Made by a program: the position numbers and the translations under genes
The notes under the pieces: model-generated
Seen by the model: only the letters and a program-made list of their open reading frames with translations
Told to the model about the DNA's origin: nothing
Database searches by the model: none
NCBI GenBank assembly: GCA_963789265.1
Contig: CAWBKB010000005.1
Coordinates: 256,001 to 320,000, forward strand
Direction of reading: 5' to 3'
Length of the DNA stretch: 64,000 nt
Source: an uncultured delta proteobacterium
Lineage (GTDB): Bacteria; Desulfobacterota; Desulfomonilia; Desulfomonilales; Desulfomonilaceae
Shown here: positions 4,914-55,622 of the stretch, piece by piece
Position numbering within the stretch: the stretch's first letter is position 1
Layout: every line of letters starts with the position of its first letter

Positions 4914-6171
4914 ATGGGTGATGAAGAGCGAAAAGTCCTGGTAGTCGGAGGCGGAATAAGCGGGATGACCGCCGCCATTGAAGCCGCCGAAGCCGGAGCG
5001 GAAGCAGTTCTGGTGGAGAAGAACCCTTATTTGGGCGGGCGCGTGGCCCTTCTCAATCAGTACTTTCCCAAGCTGTGTCCCACTAATTGCGGCCTTGAAA
5101 TAAATTTTAGGCGCATCAAACAGAATCCCAGGATAACTTATCACACGCTTGCCGAAGTGGAATCCATCTCGGGGGGTCCAGGTGCCTACGAAGTTACCTT
5201 GCTCCTGAAACCTCGGTACGTGAACGACAATTGCACAGCTTGCGGAAAGTGTTCCGAAGTCTGCGAAACCCGTGTGCCGAATCCTGTCAACTATAATATG
5301 GATACGGTGCCGGCAGCGCACTTGCCCCACTCGATGGCCTTTCCGTTCAAGTACTTACTGGCACCTGAAATCATAGGGACGCCGGAAGCCGGGAAGTGCG
5401 CTGAGGCTTGCGCTTACAGCGCTATAGACCTGGACATGCAGCCCGCGAAGGTCACTTACAATGTCGGCGCGGTCGTGTGGGCCACCGGCTGGGATCCTGT
5501 ACGAGGCCACAAAGGTGGACTATCTCGGCCTGGGAAGAATCCCCAATGTGGTCACAAGCGTCATGTTTGAACGCCTGGCCGCGTACAACGGGCCAACCGG
5601 CGGGAAAATCCTGAGACCATCCGATGGGAAAGAGGTCAAAAGCGTCGCGTTTGTCCAGTGCGCAGGTTCCAGAGACGAAAATCACCTGGCATACTGCTCC
5701 GGGATTTGCTGCCTCGCTTCTTTGAAACAAGCCACGTACATAAGGGAGCAAGTGCCGGAAAGCAAAGCCTTTATCTACTACATCGACGTTCGAGCCATGG
5801 GGAAATACGAAGATTTCTATGTCAAGGTCGACCAGGACGAGAACATAACACTGACCAAGAGCAAAATCGCCAGGATTTCGGAAGATCCTGCATCCGGCGG
5901 GGTTTTGGTCGAAGGCGAAGATATCGGCCAAGGAGCCCAGGTCAAGGAAGTTGTAGATCTAGCGGTCCTGGCGGTGGGCATGGTTCCCGGAACAGCAACC
6001 GTGAAGCCGGCTCTTGAAATGGAATACGACGACTTCGGTTTTGTGACCTCGTCCGGGAACTCGGGGATTGTTCCGGCAGGATGTGTCAAAGCGCCCATGG
6101 AGGTCGCGGCTTCCGTACAAGACGCAACGGCTGCGGCCCTCAAAGCAATTCAGCGGACGATGGGGAGGTAG
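4914..6171 (+). CDS. qmoA: QmoA-type HdrA-family flavoprotein (frameshift near 5499)
   Basis: VVGGGISG FAD motif, EKNPYLGGRVxxLNxYFPKLCP, CAGSRDENHLAYCSGICC. ORFs 4914-5570 and 5461-6171 join at WDP/YEA if one base is removed. SD GGAGG. Confidence 0.88.
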
Positions 6172-6176
6172 TGTTT

Positions 6177-8316
6177 ATGGATCAGAAAATCGGAGTCTAT
6201 ATGTGCTCGGGATGCGGCATCGGAGAATCCATAGACTTGGAAGCCCTCTCCGCAGTTGCCAATGAGTTCAGCATAGCCAAGACTGAGAGCCATCCGGCCC
6301 TTTGCAGCCAAGAAGGGGTCAGCATCATCAGAAAGGACATAGAATCAGGGGCTGTCAACTGCGTGGTGGCCGCGGCATGTTCCGGAAGGGTCAAGACCGA
6401 CGTCTTTGCGTTCGATCCCATGACCACCATACTGGAAAGACTGAATATCAGGGAGCACGTGGCCTGGTGCCAGCCCGCAGGGGCCGAAGACACGCAGATG
6501 ATGGCTGAAGATTACATGCGCATGGCCATAACCAGAGTCGAGAAGACGACGCTGCCCAAACCGTACCAGGAAGCAACAGACAAAACAGTGTTGGTGGTCG
6601 GTGGAGGTGTGTCCGGTCTCCAGGCGTCACTGGATGCCGCTCGTGCCGGCTACAGCGTGATTCTGGTTGAAAAAGAGCCGGAACTTGGCGGACACATGGC
6701 CAAATGGCACAAAACCACACCCGCAAGGCCGCCCTACCAGGAGATCGAAGACATCGCTGTCCAAGAGATCGTCGATCAGGTTAAGGCTGAGAGCAACATC
6801 ACGATCAATACGGGCACAACGATTGAAAAGGTTGCCGGCGCGCCTGGTATGTTTGATGTTACGCTCACCAACGGCGGCGGAACTCATCGCGTGGGCTCTG
6901 TCGTGCTGGCTGCGGGAATGAAGCCTTACGACGCTGCCAAACTTGAGCACCTTTCCTACGGAAAATTCCCGGACATCATTACCAGCGTACAGATGGAAGA
7001 AATGGCCAAGGCCGGGAAGATCACGTGTCCATCCGACGGTTCGGAACCCTCGGTAGTTGCGTTCATTCAGTGCGCGGGCTCTCGCGATCAGAACCACCTG
7101 CCGTATTGCAGCGCGGTTTGCTGCCGGGTCTCCTTGAAACAGGCAGAGTACGTAAAGGAGCAGAACGAGGAAAACAAAGTTGTGGTCTTCTACAAAGACA
7201 TCCGGTCGCCCGAACAGCATGAAGAATTTTATAGGAAAGTGCAGAAGGACGGCGTTGTCTTTGTGAAAACCGACACCTCGAAAGTCGCCATAAGTGAGGG
7301 GACTGAGCGCAAGCTCTCCATCGAGACTATGGACGAGTTGTTAGGCGAGCCTGTGCAGATGCAGGCCGATCTGATAGTCCTGGCGATAGGCATGCAGCCT
7401 GCAGTCTTGGACGATCCGATCCTCAATCTGCAGTACCGCCAAGGACCTGCCTTGCCTGAGTTGAAGTACGGCTTCCCGGACTCGCACTTCGTTTGTTTCC
7501 CGTACGAGACACGGAGAACCGGCATTTATACCGCGGGATGTGTCCGTCAGCCCATGACCTCAACCAGAGCCACAAATGACGGAACCGGTGCAGCTCTTAA
7601 GGCCATTCAGTGCATCGAACAAACCGCTCTGGGAAAAGCCGTTCACCCACGGGCAGGTGATACGTCTTACCCGGAGCTTTTCGTTCAGCGATGCACACAG
7701 TGCAAGCGTTGCACTGAAGAATGCCCGTTCGGTATGTACAACGAGGATGAAAAAGGAACTCCTTTGCCGCATCCCACTCGATGTCGGCGCTGCGGCATCT
7801 GCATGGGTTCCTGTCCCGAGCGTATCATCTCTTTCAATAATTATTCGGTGGATATGATCGGTTCCATGATCAAGTCCATCAATGTGCCTGACGAGTACCG
7901 ATGAGAAACCTCGTATAATTGGATTGATTTGTGAAAACGATGCTTTTCCCGCGCTGGACATGGTAGGGCTCCACAAGCTACAGTACCCGCCGTGGGTGAG
8001 GTTCATCCCGTTGAGGTGTCTGGGCTCCATGAACTTGGTCTGGATTGCGGACGCCCTGTCCAAGGGGATAGATGGGATAGTGCTCTTTGGATGCAAATTT
8101 GGAGACGATTACCAGTGCCACTTTATTCAGGGTAGTGAATTGGCGAACACTCGAATGAGCAAGATAAAGGAGACACTGGACCGGTTGGTCCTTGAATCGG
8201 ACAGGATACGGTTGGAGCAGATTTCTATTGACGATTACTGGAGGATCCCGGAAATCCTGGAGGAGTTCACTGCCAAGCTTGAAGAACTCGGCCCCAATCC
8301 GTACAAAGGTTTTTAG
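6177..8316 (+). CDS. qmoB: QmoB-type HdrA-family protein with ferredoxin and C-terminal MvhD domains (frameshift near 7898)
   Basis: GVYMCSGCGIG, NIREHVAW, GGGVSG, FVCFPYETRRTGIY, CTQCKRCTEECP, CENDAFPALD...RCLGS...GCKFGDDYQCHF. Joins at DEY/DEKP. Confidence 0.9.
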
Positions 8317-11127: not shown

Positions 11128-12558
11128 TTACGCATCGTTGCCGGATGAAGCTCGGTTGAGGGCGTCCCGTATAAGTCTTGGGATCAGCGAGGGCTGATCC
11201 TCCAAGAGGGTTCGGGGGTCTATAAGAACCGTATCGTCCTTGATCAGTGTTATTACCGGTGGAGTGCCCAGTCTGAGACTATGCTCCAAGCGTGCGGCCG
11301 ATATGTCCAGCGGACGAATGGCTACCCGCGGACCGGGGAGGTCTCCCATCGGCAGTGCACCGCCCCCTACTCTACCGATTCCCGGCTCGATGCTTACCTC
11401 AACTCGTGCGCCAACGACTTCGCGTATTGCGTCGGCAAGTTCAGCGGCAGTTTTCGCTAGCTCTGACTCGGACTTGGTTATCATCATCAGCGTTGGGATG
11501 CATGTGCTAGGCCCTTCGGGTCGGGTGTACTCAACGAGCGTGGCTTCCAGACCCGCAAGAGTCAGCTTGTCCATTCTAAGTGCCCGTGCGAGAGGATTTG
11601 TCTGCATCTTCTCGATAAGATCGGCACGACCGGCCAGAATCCCTGCCTGGGGTCCCCCGAGAAGCTTGTCCCCGCTAAAACTTACCACGTTGACGCCTTT
11701 GGCAAGAACATCCTGGACTGTAATTTCTTCCGGTAGGCCGTACGGCGACAGATCCACCAGACATCCGCTACCCAGGTCCATCATCGTGGGAATTCCATAT
11801 TCTTTCCCTATGGCCACCAACTCTCCCAGCTCGACCTCCCGAGTGAATCCCACGATTCGGTAATTGCTGGTGTGCACTTTCAGAATTAATGAGGTGTTTG
11901 CTCCGATTGCCTGAATGTAGTCCTTAGGATGCGTCCTATTGGTTGTGCCAACTTCTTTCAGGATTGCACCCGATTGAGCCATTACGTCAGGTATCCTGAA
12001 AGAGCCTCCGATTTCTATGAGTTCCCCTCTGGAAACTATGACTTCCCGTCCCTCAGCCAGACTAGACAATGCCAGCAAGACCGCAGCCGCATTATTATTG
12101 ACTGCCAGAGCGGCCTCAGCCCCTGTCAATTCCTCCATGAGTTCTCGGAGATGAGCGTTCCTTTCTCCTCTTCGTCCTTCTCCAAGGTTATATTCAAGAT
12201 TGGAATAGGACTGTGCGGCTTCCGATATCTTTTCAGCCACTCTCTTAGACAGAGGAGAACGTCCGAGATTAGTGTGAACGATCACTCCGGTCGCGTTTAT
12301 GACAGTGACGACCTTTGGCCCGACTGTTTCCAGAGCCAGGCGGGATGCCCGCCGAATCAGCGCGGAAATTGAGCAGTCCGCGTGTGATGCCTGACCCTGA
12401 CGGATTTCCTCTCGAAGTTCGTCCAAGGCGCGTCTCACCATCCGCTTGACAATTTCTTGGGAGTATTTCTCCCTGAGAGGCGCCAATTCCGAGGCGGACA
12501 AGAGGCCGTCCACCGAAGGGATCGAGCGAAACAAATCTGTGGCGTGCTCTTCTCCCAT
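11128..12558 (-). CDS. selA: L-seryl-tRNA(Sec) selenium transferase
   Basis: INATGVIVHTNLGRS, VNNNAAAV, SRGELIEIGGSFRIPDVM, EVGTTNRTH, FSGDKLLGGPQAG. Confidence 0.98.
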   Translation of the reverse strand: MGEEHATDLFRSIPSVDGLLSASELAPLREKYSQEIVKRMVRRALDELREEIRQGQASHADCSISALIRRASRLALETVGPKVVTVINATGVIVHTNLGRSPLSKRVAEKISEAAQSYSNLEYNLGEGRRGERNAHLRELMEELTGAEAALAVNNNAAAVLLALSSLAEGREVIVSRGELIEIGGSFRIPDVMAQSGAILKEVGTTNRTHPKDYIQAIGANTSLILKVHTSNYRIVGFTREVELGELVAIGKEYGIPTMMDLGSGCLVDLSPYGLPEEITVQDVLAKGVNVVSFSGDKLLGGPQAGILAGRADLIEKMQTNPLARALRMDKLTLAGLEATLVEYTRPEGPSTCIPTLMMITKSESELAKTAAELADAIREVVGARVEVSIEPGIGRVGGGALPMGDLPGPRVAIRPLDISAARLEHSLRLGTPPVITLIKDDTVLIDPRTLLEDQPSLIPRLIRDALNRASSGNDA

Positions 12559-26265: not shown

Positions 26266-26497
26266 GTTTGGAAGGCTCCGTTTGAGTCTTGTGTCCTGGT
26301 TTGCACAGAGGATCGCCCGTTCCTATATCACATTTGCAGGTCGGACGGTCACTTTTGATTCCAGTGGCTTTGACCCGCCGGCCAACCTGAGCTAATGCTT
26401 GCGACGTGGTAAATAAAGTCTCTGCCGAAAATCTGGGCCCCGGCTGCACATGTTTGCCTGTATTTCGTATAGTAACCATTTAGACAAGGAGTCGATA

Positions 26498-27596
26498 GTG
26501 ATCGCAATCTGGGCGTCTTTGTTGTGTGCGCTGGTCTTTTGTCCGCCGGCACTACTGGCCTCGGACGTTACCGTCGCCGGGGTGGGACCGCGACTAGTTT
26601 TGAGTTTCCCTAAAGACCACGGCAAACACCCTGACTTTCAAACAGAATGGTGGTATTTCACAGGGAATCTGGATTCTGACAAGGATCGTAAATGGGGATT
26701 CCAATTGACTTTTTTTCGCCGAACCTTCGTCAGGACACCCGCACGCAAACTGTCCGCGTGGGCCGTCAGAGATCTATTCCCGGCCCATTTTGCCCTCACG
26801 GACATTTCTAACCGTACCTTCTTCCATTCCGAGCTTCTAACTCGAAAAGGTCCCGGCCTCGCTCACGCGGCCTCTGACGATCTCGATGTGAGCGTCAAAG
26901 ACTGGTATGCGAAAAGACTGAAAAACGAGATACTCATCGCAGCCCGACATCAGAACTATGCCCTGGACCTTCGGCTTGTCCCGGAGAAGCCGGTCGTCCT
27001 CCAAGGCGACGCGGGGTACAGTCAAAAAGGGGACTCCAAAGGTCAAGCTTCCTATTACTACTCTTTCACGAGACTCAAGGCGAAGGGGACTTTAACATTC
27101 AAAGGAAACAGCCACAAGGTCGCAGGACTGGCCTGGATGGACCACGAATTCGGTTCGAGCATGCTTCAGGGCGACCAGAGCGGATGGGATTGGTTCGCTT
27201 TACAGCTTGATGATGGAACTGAAGTCATGGTATTTCACCTGCGAAAGAAGGATAACACCTTTGAGCGATCTTTCGGAACTTTCGGTACCTAAGAAGGGCC
27301 CTGCCATCGACCTGGGGGACGAACCGGTAGCGATTTTGCCTACTGGAACCTGGACTAGCCCTGTGACCAGGGCAGTTTATCCTTCCGGCTGGACCGTGGA
27401 AATCCCCGGTCGCAACATCAGACTTAAGGTTACACCCGCAATTGAAGCCCAAGAGCTTGCCTCGGGATCGCCAATCGGAATCATTTACTGGGAGGGAGCG
27501 GTAATCGTCAAAGGGTTTCGAGATGGAAAGAAAGTTACAGGTCGGGGCTACGCGGAACTCACCGGATATGCTCGTTCAATGAAGGGACGCCTCTGA
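26498..27596 (+). CDS. AttH/CrtC-like lipocalin-fold secreted hydrolase (frameshift near 27284)
   Basis: FPKDHGKHPDFQTEWWYFTGNL, ASYYYS, WMDHEFGS, GWDWF, YWEGAV, GYAELTGY. Confidence 0.88.
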
Positions 27597-27766: not shown

Positions 27767-28068
27767 GAGGTCGGCTGGCCGACTGCGTAAACAACTGGAC
27801 CGGAAGTCTCTGTACCAAGGATCTAGATCAGAGGCTTTCGGTCTCTAATTTTACTGCCGCGCTGCCCTAGCGATTGGTCGTTTCATCAAGGAACTATGTT
27901 CGGAAGCGGACGGACGCGTGGCCAGCTACTGACCGGACGCCTGAAACCGGCAATAATCAAGCCGCGTCTCGCGCAACTCATGCCGAAATTGGTGGCGGTT
28001 TGTGAGGAGGGGCGAGAGGATCTCATGTTTGAAAAGATCCTCCCAAGTAGTTCCCCACAGCTTATAGA

Positions 28069-28353
28069 TCACTGATTGGCCGGCATTGGCCTGGAAGAGC
28101 GGTGCCTGGACCTCATAGGTTTGGGCTGCATTTGACCGTACGCAGCCTGGCCGGGATAACCGTAGTATCCGTACCCATAATTGTATCCGTACCCATACCC
28201 CGCATAGGGAGCTGCTCCCGCACTGTAGCTGCTGCCTGCCCCTGACCAGGGGATACCGCAGTTGAATCAACTCGCCCCTGCGGCGAAAGGCACGATTGCG
28301 ATGGCAAAGACAGCCACCACAAGAAATAACCTAACCGGCTTAATCCACTGCAT
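28069..28353 (-). CDS. Candidate secreted Gly/Tyr-rich selenoprotein (94 aa, in-frame UGA at codon 29, UxxC)
   Basis: SD AGGAGG; MQWIKPVRLFLVVAVFAIAIVPFAAGAS-U-FNCGIPWSGAGSSYSAGAAPYAGYGYGYNYGYGYYGYPGQ...; SECIS-like hairpin after the UGA. Confidence 0.65.
28232..28261 (-). promoter_or_regulatory. Candidate bacterial SECIS element
   Basis: CUGC...CCCCU-GGUC-AGGGG...GCAG; apical GGUC loop at +20 to +23 after the UGA at 28269-28267. Confidence 0.6.
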
Positions 28354-28581
28354 CCTTTCCTCCTTCAAAATGACACATGACTAACGGGAGAGTTATATGT
28401 ACCCTACCGGGGGACCTTTGTCATCTTTTTTCTGCCGGCTGCCATCATTCTCGGATATCTTAAAGAATCTGCGCTATTGGTAGAGTTCAACGGCTGCCGC
28501 CTGCGCGCTACCGATTTCAAAGGGCCATTGTCCACTAGTGGACCATGCGTCCGGCAGGCGCCATGACTTCGGCGCCATCAA

Positions 28582-28666: not shown

Positions 28667-28930
28667 CTACTCTTTTCGGCAGATCTGGTCTTTCAAAGCT
28701 TCAGACGACCAGACCGCCATTGGACCGCACGCGCCGCGAGCGTCTATGCGGCAGCGATAGCCTGTTCTCGTGACTCCCTGCCCATCAAGAGCGTCCCAAC
28801 TGTTCTTGAAATAGCAGCATTCATCATTAAAGCAGACATAATGCGTTTCGCCGCCCCACGATGAATCAATCGGGGTCTTAATCGGATCCATCTCGCTGCC
28901 ACAGTGCGGGCATGTGGGATCTTTGTCCAT
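28667..28930 (-). CDS. Small zinc-ribbon protein (87 aa)
   Basis: CPHCG...YVCFNDECCYF; SD AGGAGG. Confidence 0.8.
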   Translation of the reverse strand: MDKDPTCPHCGSEMDPIKTPIDSSWGGETHYVCFNDECCYFKNSWDALDGQGVTRTGYRCRIDARGACGPMAVWSSEALKDQICRKE

Positions 28931-29163: not shown

Positions 29164-30258
29164 TCAATCGAACAACCTATATTTTCTGTAGAAGAATGGT
29201 TTGAGGACCTTCAATCCTAATATTGACACGACGGGCTTGATCCATGAACCAATGCGGCTGTTGCTCCCTAAACACCTGCGACAGTATGGGTTGACAAGAC
29301 GACCCCGCCTAAAACCTCTCATTACTCGTTCAAGTTCAGCGCCGGAGAGAATTTCGAGGAGAGATGAATCCTTGAGGCTTCCCAGCGAGGTGCGGCCATC
29401 GAAGTCTACACAGCACAATACCACCTCTCCTGAGTAAAGAATGGCAAAATGGTCCCGCATCCCAAAACAATAGCCGTATGCCGCCTCTACGATGTCTGCT
29501 CCAGAGAAGGCATTACCCCAGTCTGTAAGTACGTAAGTCTCTATGAAGATATTGGGGCTAATCTCAATTACGTTCCATCCGTGAATGCCGATCTTCTTCA
29601 GCCTTTGGGCCAGGTGCCCGGCCGCGCAGCTAGGACCGAGGCGCCGATAAATAATCTGAGCCCATTCTCGGACGGAATTTCTAAGAGCCTTTGAGCTTCC
29701 CATAAAATTGGGGATTCCAAGCTCATCTCGCATCTGTTTTGCGAAAGACGTGGTCATTATACGAATTTTGAAAATAGGAGGCGAAGGTCTGGCTGCACGC
29801 ACGACCAACAGATCCAGTACTCTTGCTCGATAGTCTTCGAAATCCATGCGAGTTCCGCGGGTGGCAAGGAAACTGTCCTCATCAGGAGTTTGCAGGGAAA
29901 TATCTATTTGGTGCAGGTCTCGCTCGGCTAGTGCTTTTATGGTTTGAGGGTTCAGGAGAGCGCCGTTCGTGGTGAGCCCTACCGGCAGATTTCGAGCGCG
30001 AGCATGATCTAGAATGTCAAGAAACCCGGGGTGCAGAAGCGGTTCTCCCATCACGTGAAAAGTTACCTTCTCTGCCAAATCAAGCTCAGAAATCTGATCC
30101 AGAGCAGATCGAGCCAATGCCTCATTCATTACCCCGCGCTTACGCGTCATCATAGAGTCCGGGCAGAACAGACAAGAGAAGTTGCACCTGTTGGTTAACT
30201 CCAGATGTATTCGTTTAAACTTCTTCGGAAGATAAGGCGGTAATTTCTTGTGAGTCAC
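29164..30258 (-). CDS. Radical SAM protein with SPASM/twitch domain
   Basis: ELTNRCNFSCLFC, GEPLLHP, TTNG, GEVVLCCVDFDG, PYCRRC. Confidence 0.9.
   Translation of the reverse strand: MTHKKLPPYLPKKFKRIHLELTNRCNFSCLFCPDSMMTRKRGVMNEALARSALDQISELDLAEKVTFHVMGEPLLHPGFLDILDHARARNLPVGLTTNGALLNPQTIKALAERDLHQIDISLQTPDEDSFLATRGTRMDFEDYRARVLDLLVVRAARPSPPIFKIRIMTTSFAKQMRDELGIPNFMGSSKALRNSVREWAQIIYRRLGPSCAAGHLAQRLKKIGIHGWNVIEISPNIFIETYVLTDWGNAFSGADIVEAAYGYCFGMRDHFAILYSGEVVLCCVDFDGRTSLGSLKDSSLLEILSGAELERVMRGFRRGRLVNPYCRRCLGSNSRIGSWIKPVVSILGLKVLKPFFYRKYRLFD

Positions 30259-53448: not shown

Positions 53449-55622
<2,174 letters not shown>

Follow-up and report, generated by a model that had tools for sequence, protein, structure and literature searches.

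The question raised by this locus is whether an in-frame TGA codon, placed just past a predicted signal peptide, ends a bare leader or encodes selenocysteine (Sec) in an exported protein and, if the latter, what such a protein might do. The locus lies in a 64,000-nucleotide window (the whole stretch of DNA that was analysed) from the genome of an uncultured member of the Desulfomonilaceae. As judged from its open frame and its homologues, the whole gene occupies 28069..28353 on the minus strand, as do all other features of the locus given below on that strand, and has 94 codons, of which codon 29 is an internal TGA, ahead of a final TGA stop (28071-28069); its ATG start codon is at 28353. A sequence-only reading of the window had reported an AGGAGG Shine-Dalgarno (SD) site, a leader ending in A-G-A, the sequence S-[TGA]-F-N-C and 65 further open codons. 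All of these are present, on the minus strand, which that reading did not state. The SD site is at 28359..28364, and GGAG-type sites are also found 5' of most members of the family described here. The frame runs MQWIKPVRLFLVVAVFAIAIVPFAAGAS-[TGA 28269-28267]-FNCGIPWSGAG..., with 65 codons that contain GY repeats and then a TGA; the 65-codon stretch past the internal TGA includes GYGYGYNYGYGYYGYP.

Comparative evidence makes it close to certain that the UGA is recoded as Sec at codon 29. A family profile built from 17 members was searched against 70 genomes of the host family and matched 67 rows in 50 of them, comprising 58 TGA loci, seven Cys loci, the tail of one frameshifted copy and one unrelated peptide. 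At the site itself, where the sequence-only reading had looked to orthologues to decide between UGA or Cys and Trp, 58 loci from 49 genomes have TGA at the same column, seven have Cys, and none of the family loci in the 70 genomes has TGG. One of the seven Cys loci is offset by a residue, the seventh Cys copy sits in the source genome itself, and database proteins P0007-P0010 are also Cys homologues. L039 was collapsed with L038, leaving 57 distinct TGA loci, and the 63 distinct stored loci are made up of 42 with UxxC, 15 with UC and six with Cys; L074 (G064:C286, another Gly/Tyr/Cys peptide), the tail half of the frameshifted L072 and duplicate loci were left out. L072 (G006:C19) and L070 (G061:C18) are Sec copies frameshifted in their Gly/Tyr repeats, through error or decay.

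In a blind test, the third base of the codon was left free (TGN, 12 nucleotides, SECIS core) and membership was assigned with the TGN column masked. Among the matches listed from genomes, which are largely the same genomes as in the profile search, members read TGA in 20 of 20 cases and non-members TGG in 37 of 100; in metagenomes, 16 of 18 members read TGA, and in the other two the TGA lies one codon further 5'; 23 of 59 non-members read TGG. Contigs of two public runs (X1 and X4) span 28267-28269, the letters that the sequence-only reading had wished to see checked, and show no differing letter; both runs belong to one study, possibly including the source sample. Past the SECIS, pN/pS is 0.26 across 21 disjoint pairs, and third positions account for 257 of the 453 changes; the ratio is biased down by the picking of pairs on amino-acid identity (65-98%). 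On this evidence of purifying selection, the stretch read through past the UGA is a selected protein.

There would be no selenoprotein if the TGA were a sequencing error or the mark of a TGG-to-TGA pseudogene, if the genome used genetic code 4, or if a short leader peptide were followed by non-coding RNA. Such explanations are suggested by a W at the site in three database proteins (P0002, P0004 and P0006) and by several split genes in the window, because of which the assembly may contain errors; however, the contig that encodes P0004 (L263) reads TGA at the site, so that its W is a gene-caller's code-4 reading (P0002 and P0006 are known as protein only), and with a TGA kept in 49 genomes, Cys as its substitute, a SECIS that goes with the codon and purifying selection on the sequence past it, they are barely credible. 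Trp or code 4 at the site is ruled out by the TGA/Cys columns of the family, the L263 DNA and stop usage, as TGA terminates 777 of 1466 long open frames of the source genome and is its commonest stop; the genome is therefore not code 4. The split genes, a CrtC-like lipocalin (26450-27596), GltX (54337-55622) and an HdrA-like gene (4914-7904), each lie over overlapping frames, possibly through assembly indels.

The hairpin that follows the UGA has the form first described, CCCCU-GGUC-AGGGG, with its upper stem-loop at 28252-28239 and its loop at 28247-28244, starting at +20, such that 19 nt separate the UGA and the loop. Folding predicts a lower helix that extends it (about 28261-28229). The bacterial SECIS consensus given in the legend to Fig. 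2A of PMC13188914 has a G-containing apical loop at a spacing of 16-37 nt, and across the family a GG-loop hairpin is found 16-22 nt 3' of the TGA. When this consensus was applied to perfect stems only, with a cut-off of -7.5 kcal/mol, it was passed by 47 of 57 TGA copies and none of six Cys copies, against a background of 172 passes among 5000 random TGAs (3.4%); the conservation of the hairpin, on which the sequence-only reading had staked its proposal, is thus borne out. The perfect stem of the window copy, at -6.7 kcal/mol, falls narrowly short of the cut-off and reaches -10.9 with the lower helix. Taken alone, the window hairpin has no extra stability relative to shuffled sequences (z 0.73, 0.13 and -0.27), and for longer pieces of it 103-154 of 200 shuffles fold equally well; as far as sequence can tell, it is above chance only via its conservation. 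On the alignment, 90.8% of cells in the stem are paired and two-sided changes occur in nine cells (0 of 500 shuffles), figures which kinship among the sequences inflates, and all slid registers are worse than the actual one.

It is this RNA element, rather than the peptide, that shows the strongest conservation. Of the 33 copies that read SWSG, all use TCC for the first Ser and 32 use TCA for the second; Ser codons elsewhere are evenly spread. Cys copies with near-identical leaders and tails swap the SECIS stretch, for example for SGIGQSNG. The fixed Ser codons and the replaced stretch suggest that the peptide PSWSGG is largely an imprint of the RNA element. L024 (G064:C120), a Cys copy nested among Sec copies, has a decayed hairpin, CGC-CGGUCA-GCG, where the SECIS stood.

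The source genome is equipped for selenocysteine insertion. The selA gene, noted earlier as lying inside the window, is indeed there at 11128..12558 on the minus strand (Pfam SelA, E 6e-152), outside the locus proper and as support in trans; selB, selD (with its own in-frame TGA) and the tRNA-Sec(UCA) are elsewhere in the genome, so that selA, selB, selC and selD are all present. Across the host family, selA is found in 69 of 70 genomes, the search giving no match in G018 (99% complete), which carries a TGA copy. The genes of the source genome which we take, from their motifs, to be reference selenoproteins (selD, HdrA, two FdhA and Trx-like) are followed at 17-24 nt by comparable hairpins, that of one FdhA having an AGGUC loop 18 nt past its UGA. 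Trx-like frames at G000 C3:305109, C3:418639, C6:321022 and C1:1934023 have U-x-x-C and SECIS-like hairpins, and three of these four share an F-x-N-P-x-U motif. The locus resembles SelB/SECIS selenoproteins of the E. coli fdhF type in its in-frame UGA, G-containing apical loop, Sec/Cys homologue pairs and UxxC, but differs from them in being an exported, low-complexity peptide without a domain, with Sec at mature position +2 and a variable Sec-Cys spacing.

The gene is likely to form its own transcript, as it lies between a promoter-like motif and a 3' hairpin. The putative sigma-70-type promoter (28396..28424) reads ATGACA-17 nt-TACATA, with an A-tract just 5'. A motif of this kind, which was defined post hoc, precedes the start codon by 66-74 nt in 34 of the 63 members, compared with 31 of 1617 other SD-ATG sites of the source genome; a strict consensus promoter scan made no call at 28396..28424. 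Past the stop, the hairpin at 28001..28059 is terminator-like or stabilising and has no U tract, a terminator scan made no call there, and similar hairpins are found 3' of most of the 30 members folded.

The family was found only in the Desulfomonilaceae among the genomes searched, and some of the named records in which members occur bear the title Desulfomonilaceae. The sister family (52 genomes) gave a single weak match and the rest of the phylum (393 other genomes) another, with the best 12 candidates scored per genome; both were rejected on inspection. Three candidates, G040/L015, G434 and G504, were set aside as members since they have no leader, no Cys/Sec head and no ORF, respectively. 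A BLAST search for paralogues in the source genome gave nothing clear, and the profile search recovered its Cys paralogue (L307). In a Sec/Cys self-search across the whole genome, antisense frames overwhelmed the output, and for a candidate that came from it (L309) no family was found.

Pfam has no family over the cut-off for these sequences, NCBIfam gave no match at E<=0.1 for 12 members, and a PDB sequence search gave 0 matches. When compared by description, none of the 119 prokaryotic selenoprotein families in Table 1 of the 2026 catalogue (PMC13188914) is described likewise. A description of the family was not found in the available text of the literature, including deep-Sep, BSepDB and the Haft and Gwadz preprint; other recent candidate lists or supplements could contain it. 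Searches of protein libraries yielded nothing beyond Cys forms, forms misread with W, a single truncated form and look-alikes by composition, the available names being 'hypothetical protein', and the Cys homologue P0008 retrieved only unnamed clusters from the ESM Atlas, at about 0.82. Selenobacteriocin (TIGR04081), KCU-star (NF033934) and SaoC (NF040734) are likewise small or exported, have Sec beside Cys and are often truncated in databases, but their Sec is C-terminal where here it is N-terminal, and the present family has no conserved operon and no NCBIfam match. With orthologues that have TGA or Cys and never TGG, and a hairpin that is conserved, the core of the earlier proposal, an exported and undescribed selenoprotein, has stood up: by its sequences this is a real family of selenoproteins, restricted to one lineage and unusual in its domain-less build, and apparently an undescribed one.

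Up to the stop, the product is a 28-residue leader, and the gene is therefore dropped, truncated (P0015) or read with Trp (P0004). Public gene calls misread the family in these ways, with Trp at the UGA in P0002, P0004 and P0006 (the DNA of P0004 being TGA) and truncation at the UGA in P0015.

The encoded chain begins with a predicted Sec/SPase I signal peptide (residues 1-27, 28273..28353) that ends in A-G-A, assigned by simple rules, as was its cleavage, and by the helix in an AlphaFold model. In each of the 57 Sec copies the leader has a basic N-region and a hydrophobic 11-mer of 2.2 KD or more; small residues occupy positions -3/-1, in the pattern A-x-A in 33 copies. The inferred Sec (28267..28269) would be residue +2 of the predicted mature chain. 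A Gly/Ser/Tyr-rich, low-complexity segment (28135..28242, with GY repeats at 28200-28153) follows and is predicted to be disordered; past the leader, the family is composed of 15.6% Gly, 14.9% Ser and 12.1% Tyr. In the AlphaFold model the leader is the sole helix, mean pLDDT is 53 and about 39-52 in the Gly/Ser/Tyr segment, and no fold is predicted, the model being too poor for a fold search. The chain ends in a basic Lys/Arg/Pro-rich tail (28072..28122); in 50 short Sec copies the last 22 residues contain at least four Lys and Arg, with a mean of 6.5. Five Sec copies (L062, L069, L071, L075 and L076) are long variants of 133-195 residues, all with UC, and end in a common motif, [LF]-G-x-x-x-W, which may be a membrane or sorting signal.

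A Cys partner is present in every Sec copy; in the window it is Cys32 of U-F-N-C (28258..28260). The UxxC claimed earlier as a classic redox motif is present there and in 42 Sec copies, but its identity as a thioredoxin-type motif is doubtful, because the partner is at +3 in those 42 copies and at +1 (UC) in 15 of 57, and Cys copies have CxxC or CxC. Such free exchange among UxxC, UC, CxxC and CxC, in a chain predicted to be unfolded, speaks against an active site of the thioredoxin type and favours a flexible N-terminal pair of selenol and thiol. Unlike thioredoxin-fold UxxC oxidoreductases, the family has no match in the PDB or, over the cut-off, in Pfam, lacks a predicted fold and varies in its U/C spacing.

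What such a peptide does is best considered alongside its genomic neighbourhood. The window copy and most Sec copies are solitary, with neighbours that differ from genus to genus. Genes for ArsR, ACR3, ArsC, ArsM or ExtKL lie within 6 kb of five of seven Cys copies and three of 57 Sec copies, compared with 1.9% of the source genome length; four rows of this comparison fell on the locus of a near-identical neighbour, and L070 is for that reason not counted as an arsenic-island copy. Among the 32 Sec copies flanked by 2.5 kb or more on each side, none has ars or ExtKL genes nearby. In a poorly resolved tree the copies found in islands cluster into roughly two groups of relatives and therefore represent few independent events. 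The Cys paralogue L307 (G000:C1:2355830-2356084, minus strand) reads SEA-G-C-A-C-G-G-A-C, has no SECIS and lies in an island with ACR3, ArsR-like, ArsC-like, ABC exporter and CoA-disulfide-reductase-like genes.

The reading that we tentatively prefer, at a little under an even chance, is that the Sec mini-protein, predicted to be exported and unstructured, scavenges or buffers arsenite, soft metals or polysulfide/sulfane sulfur in the periplasm by means of its selenol and thiol. The ars and ExtKL island copies, together with the variable Sec-Cys spacing, favour it over a sulfur-globule coat or an enzyme, since a spacing that switches is easier to reconcile with chelation or scavenging than with a folded active site. 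In the first step, SelB would almost certainly read the hairpin 19 nt past the UGA and place Sec at codon 29, as comparison of homologues indicates. Signal peptidase would then very probably cut after residue 27, exposing NH2-Ser-Sec-Phe-Asn-Cys on a flexible chain of 67 residues. Whether the N-terminal amine/selenol/thiol cluster would go on to bind or reduce soft electrophiles stoichiometrically is evenly balanced. The Gly/Tyr segment might serve as a tether or self-association module, whilst the basic tail might hold the peptide to anionic envelope components. If selenium were absent only the bare signal peptide would be made, and the product would therefore be selenium-gated. A scavenger of this kind would work like the bufferins or a metallothionein head and be a member of neither. 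Bufferins, MNIO-modified copper-buffering RiPPs, are similarly small exported Cys peptides, proposed to buffer periplasmic soft metals; the present family differs in that it uses Sec and has no MNIO in the genome, no predicted fold and no match to their sequence family.

A structural coat of the envelope or of granules, in which a Gly/Tyr layer is cross-linked through Sec/Cys or bonded to S/Se deposits, is unlikely. Like the sulfur globule proteins SgpA/B/C (PF17228), the peptide is small and Gly/Tyr-rich with a predicted signal peptide, a conserved promoter of its own would suit housekeeping expression, and the source genome has about seven more small exported Gly/Tyr-rich ORFs. Weak Pfam matches are to SGP in two of 17 members (best E 0.02) and Chorion_1 in five of 17 (best E 2e-5). 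The SGP matches are, however, under the cut-off, the Sec/Cys pair and basic tail set the peptide apart, and Sec is unnecessary for a structural role. The host also has DsrD, a marker of reductive sulfate reducers and not of globule-forming oxidisers. SgpA-C, keratin-like coats in the periplasm, are extremely hydrophobic in the account of PMC10386293; the mature chain here is, by contrast, polar and basic. Of the earlier suggestion that the peptide binds metal or coats S/Se deposits, gene context fits the metal half better, and the link to sulfur globules is compositional only. The other Gly/Tyr-rich ORFs are at G000 C1:850213, C1:2137872, C3:653014, C5:478358, C6:389738, C6:303128 and C8:84901; several are Cys-rich, and two were scanned and have no Pfam family.

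Rather less probable is a catalytic sulfur or electron shuttle that serves the periplasmic polysulfide reductase ExtKL/MccSep via a selenenylsulfide or selenopersulfide. ExtKL lies directly 5', on the same strand, of five loci in four genomes (L049, L050, L060, L064 and L009), and PMC13510729, where MccSep is shown to be a periplasmic polysulfide reductase, leaves further sulfur-transfer components open in the part available. ExtKL/MccSep (NF040886) is, like the peptide, a periplasmic selenoprotein of the same hosts, but is unrelated to it in sequence. Against such a shuttle, the source genome has no ExtKL over the cut-off, only 40 of 70 family genomes have it, it adjoins only one of 57 Sec copies, and the spacing of the motif is variable.

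That the peptide is a selenium store or status gauge, cheap, abundant and exported, which keeps Sec in reserve or is produced only in the presence of selenium, is very unlikely. A conserved promoter, a strong SD site, a stop product that is only a signal peptide and a SECIS more conserved than the peptide would suit it; a single Sec per chain is nevertheless poor storage, and Cys forms arose more than once (at least two label changes are forced by supported branches) with the partner Cys kept.

Least probable of the functional readings, and only faintly so, is a RiPP precursor modified in the manner of bufferins, Sec-exported Cys peptides that can be RiPPs according to the available text of bioRxiv 2024.03.18.585515, by an MNIO or by the radical SAM/SPASM enzyme encoded 0.8 kb 5' on the same strand (29164-30258): this gene and that of the Ogr/Delta-like zinc-finger protein between (28667-28930) recur only in the window's genus, g1 (five loci), and DUF692 (PF05114) MNIO is absent from the source genome (the control being positive), so that the reading is weak; moreover, no NCBIfam maturase family reached its cut-off and there is no selenobacteriocin (TIGR04081) match.

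A wider proposal joins several of these elements, and is improbable to much the same degree as the shuttle: domain-less, selenium-gated secreted selenopeptides, with a Sec/Cys head on a self-assembling Gly/Tyr chain, might form a periplasmic matrix that traps arsenic and polysulfide and passes sulfur to ExtKL/MccSep.

Set against the current catalogue, the family represents a new selenoprotein architecture, one that lacks a folded domain, carries its Sec at the tip of a chain predicted to be exported and has a motif that appears mainly to spell the SECIS, and it exposes a blind spot in annotation. Natural swaps between Sec and Cys and between UxxC and UC, in a chain of 67 residues that can be synthesised, make the benefit of Sec over Cys directly testable. 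For the sulfate reducers that carry it, the selenopeptide is a candidate for an unknown periplasmic sulfur or arsenic carrier, and the selenium-armed matrix, if true, would be a non-enzymatic, materials role for bacterial selenocysteine.
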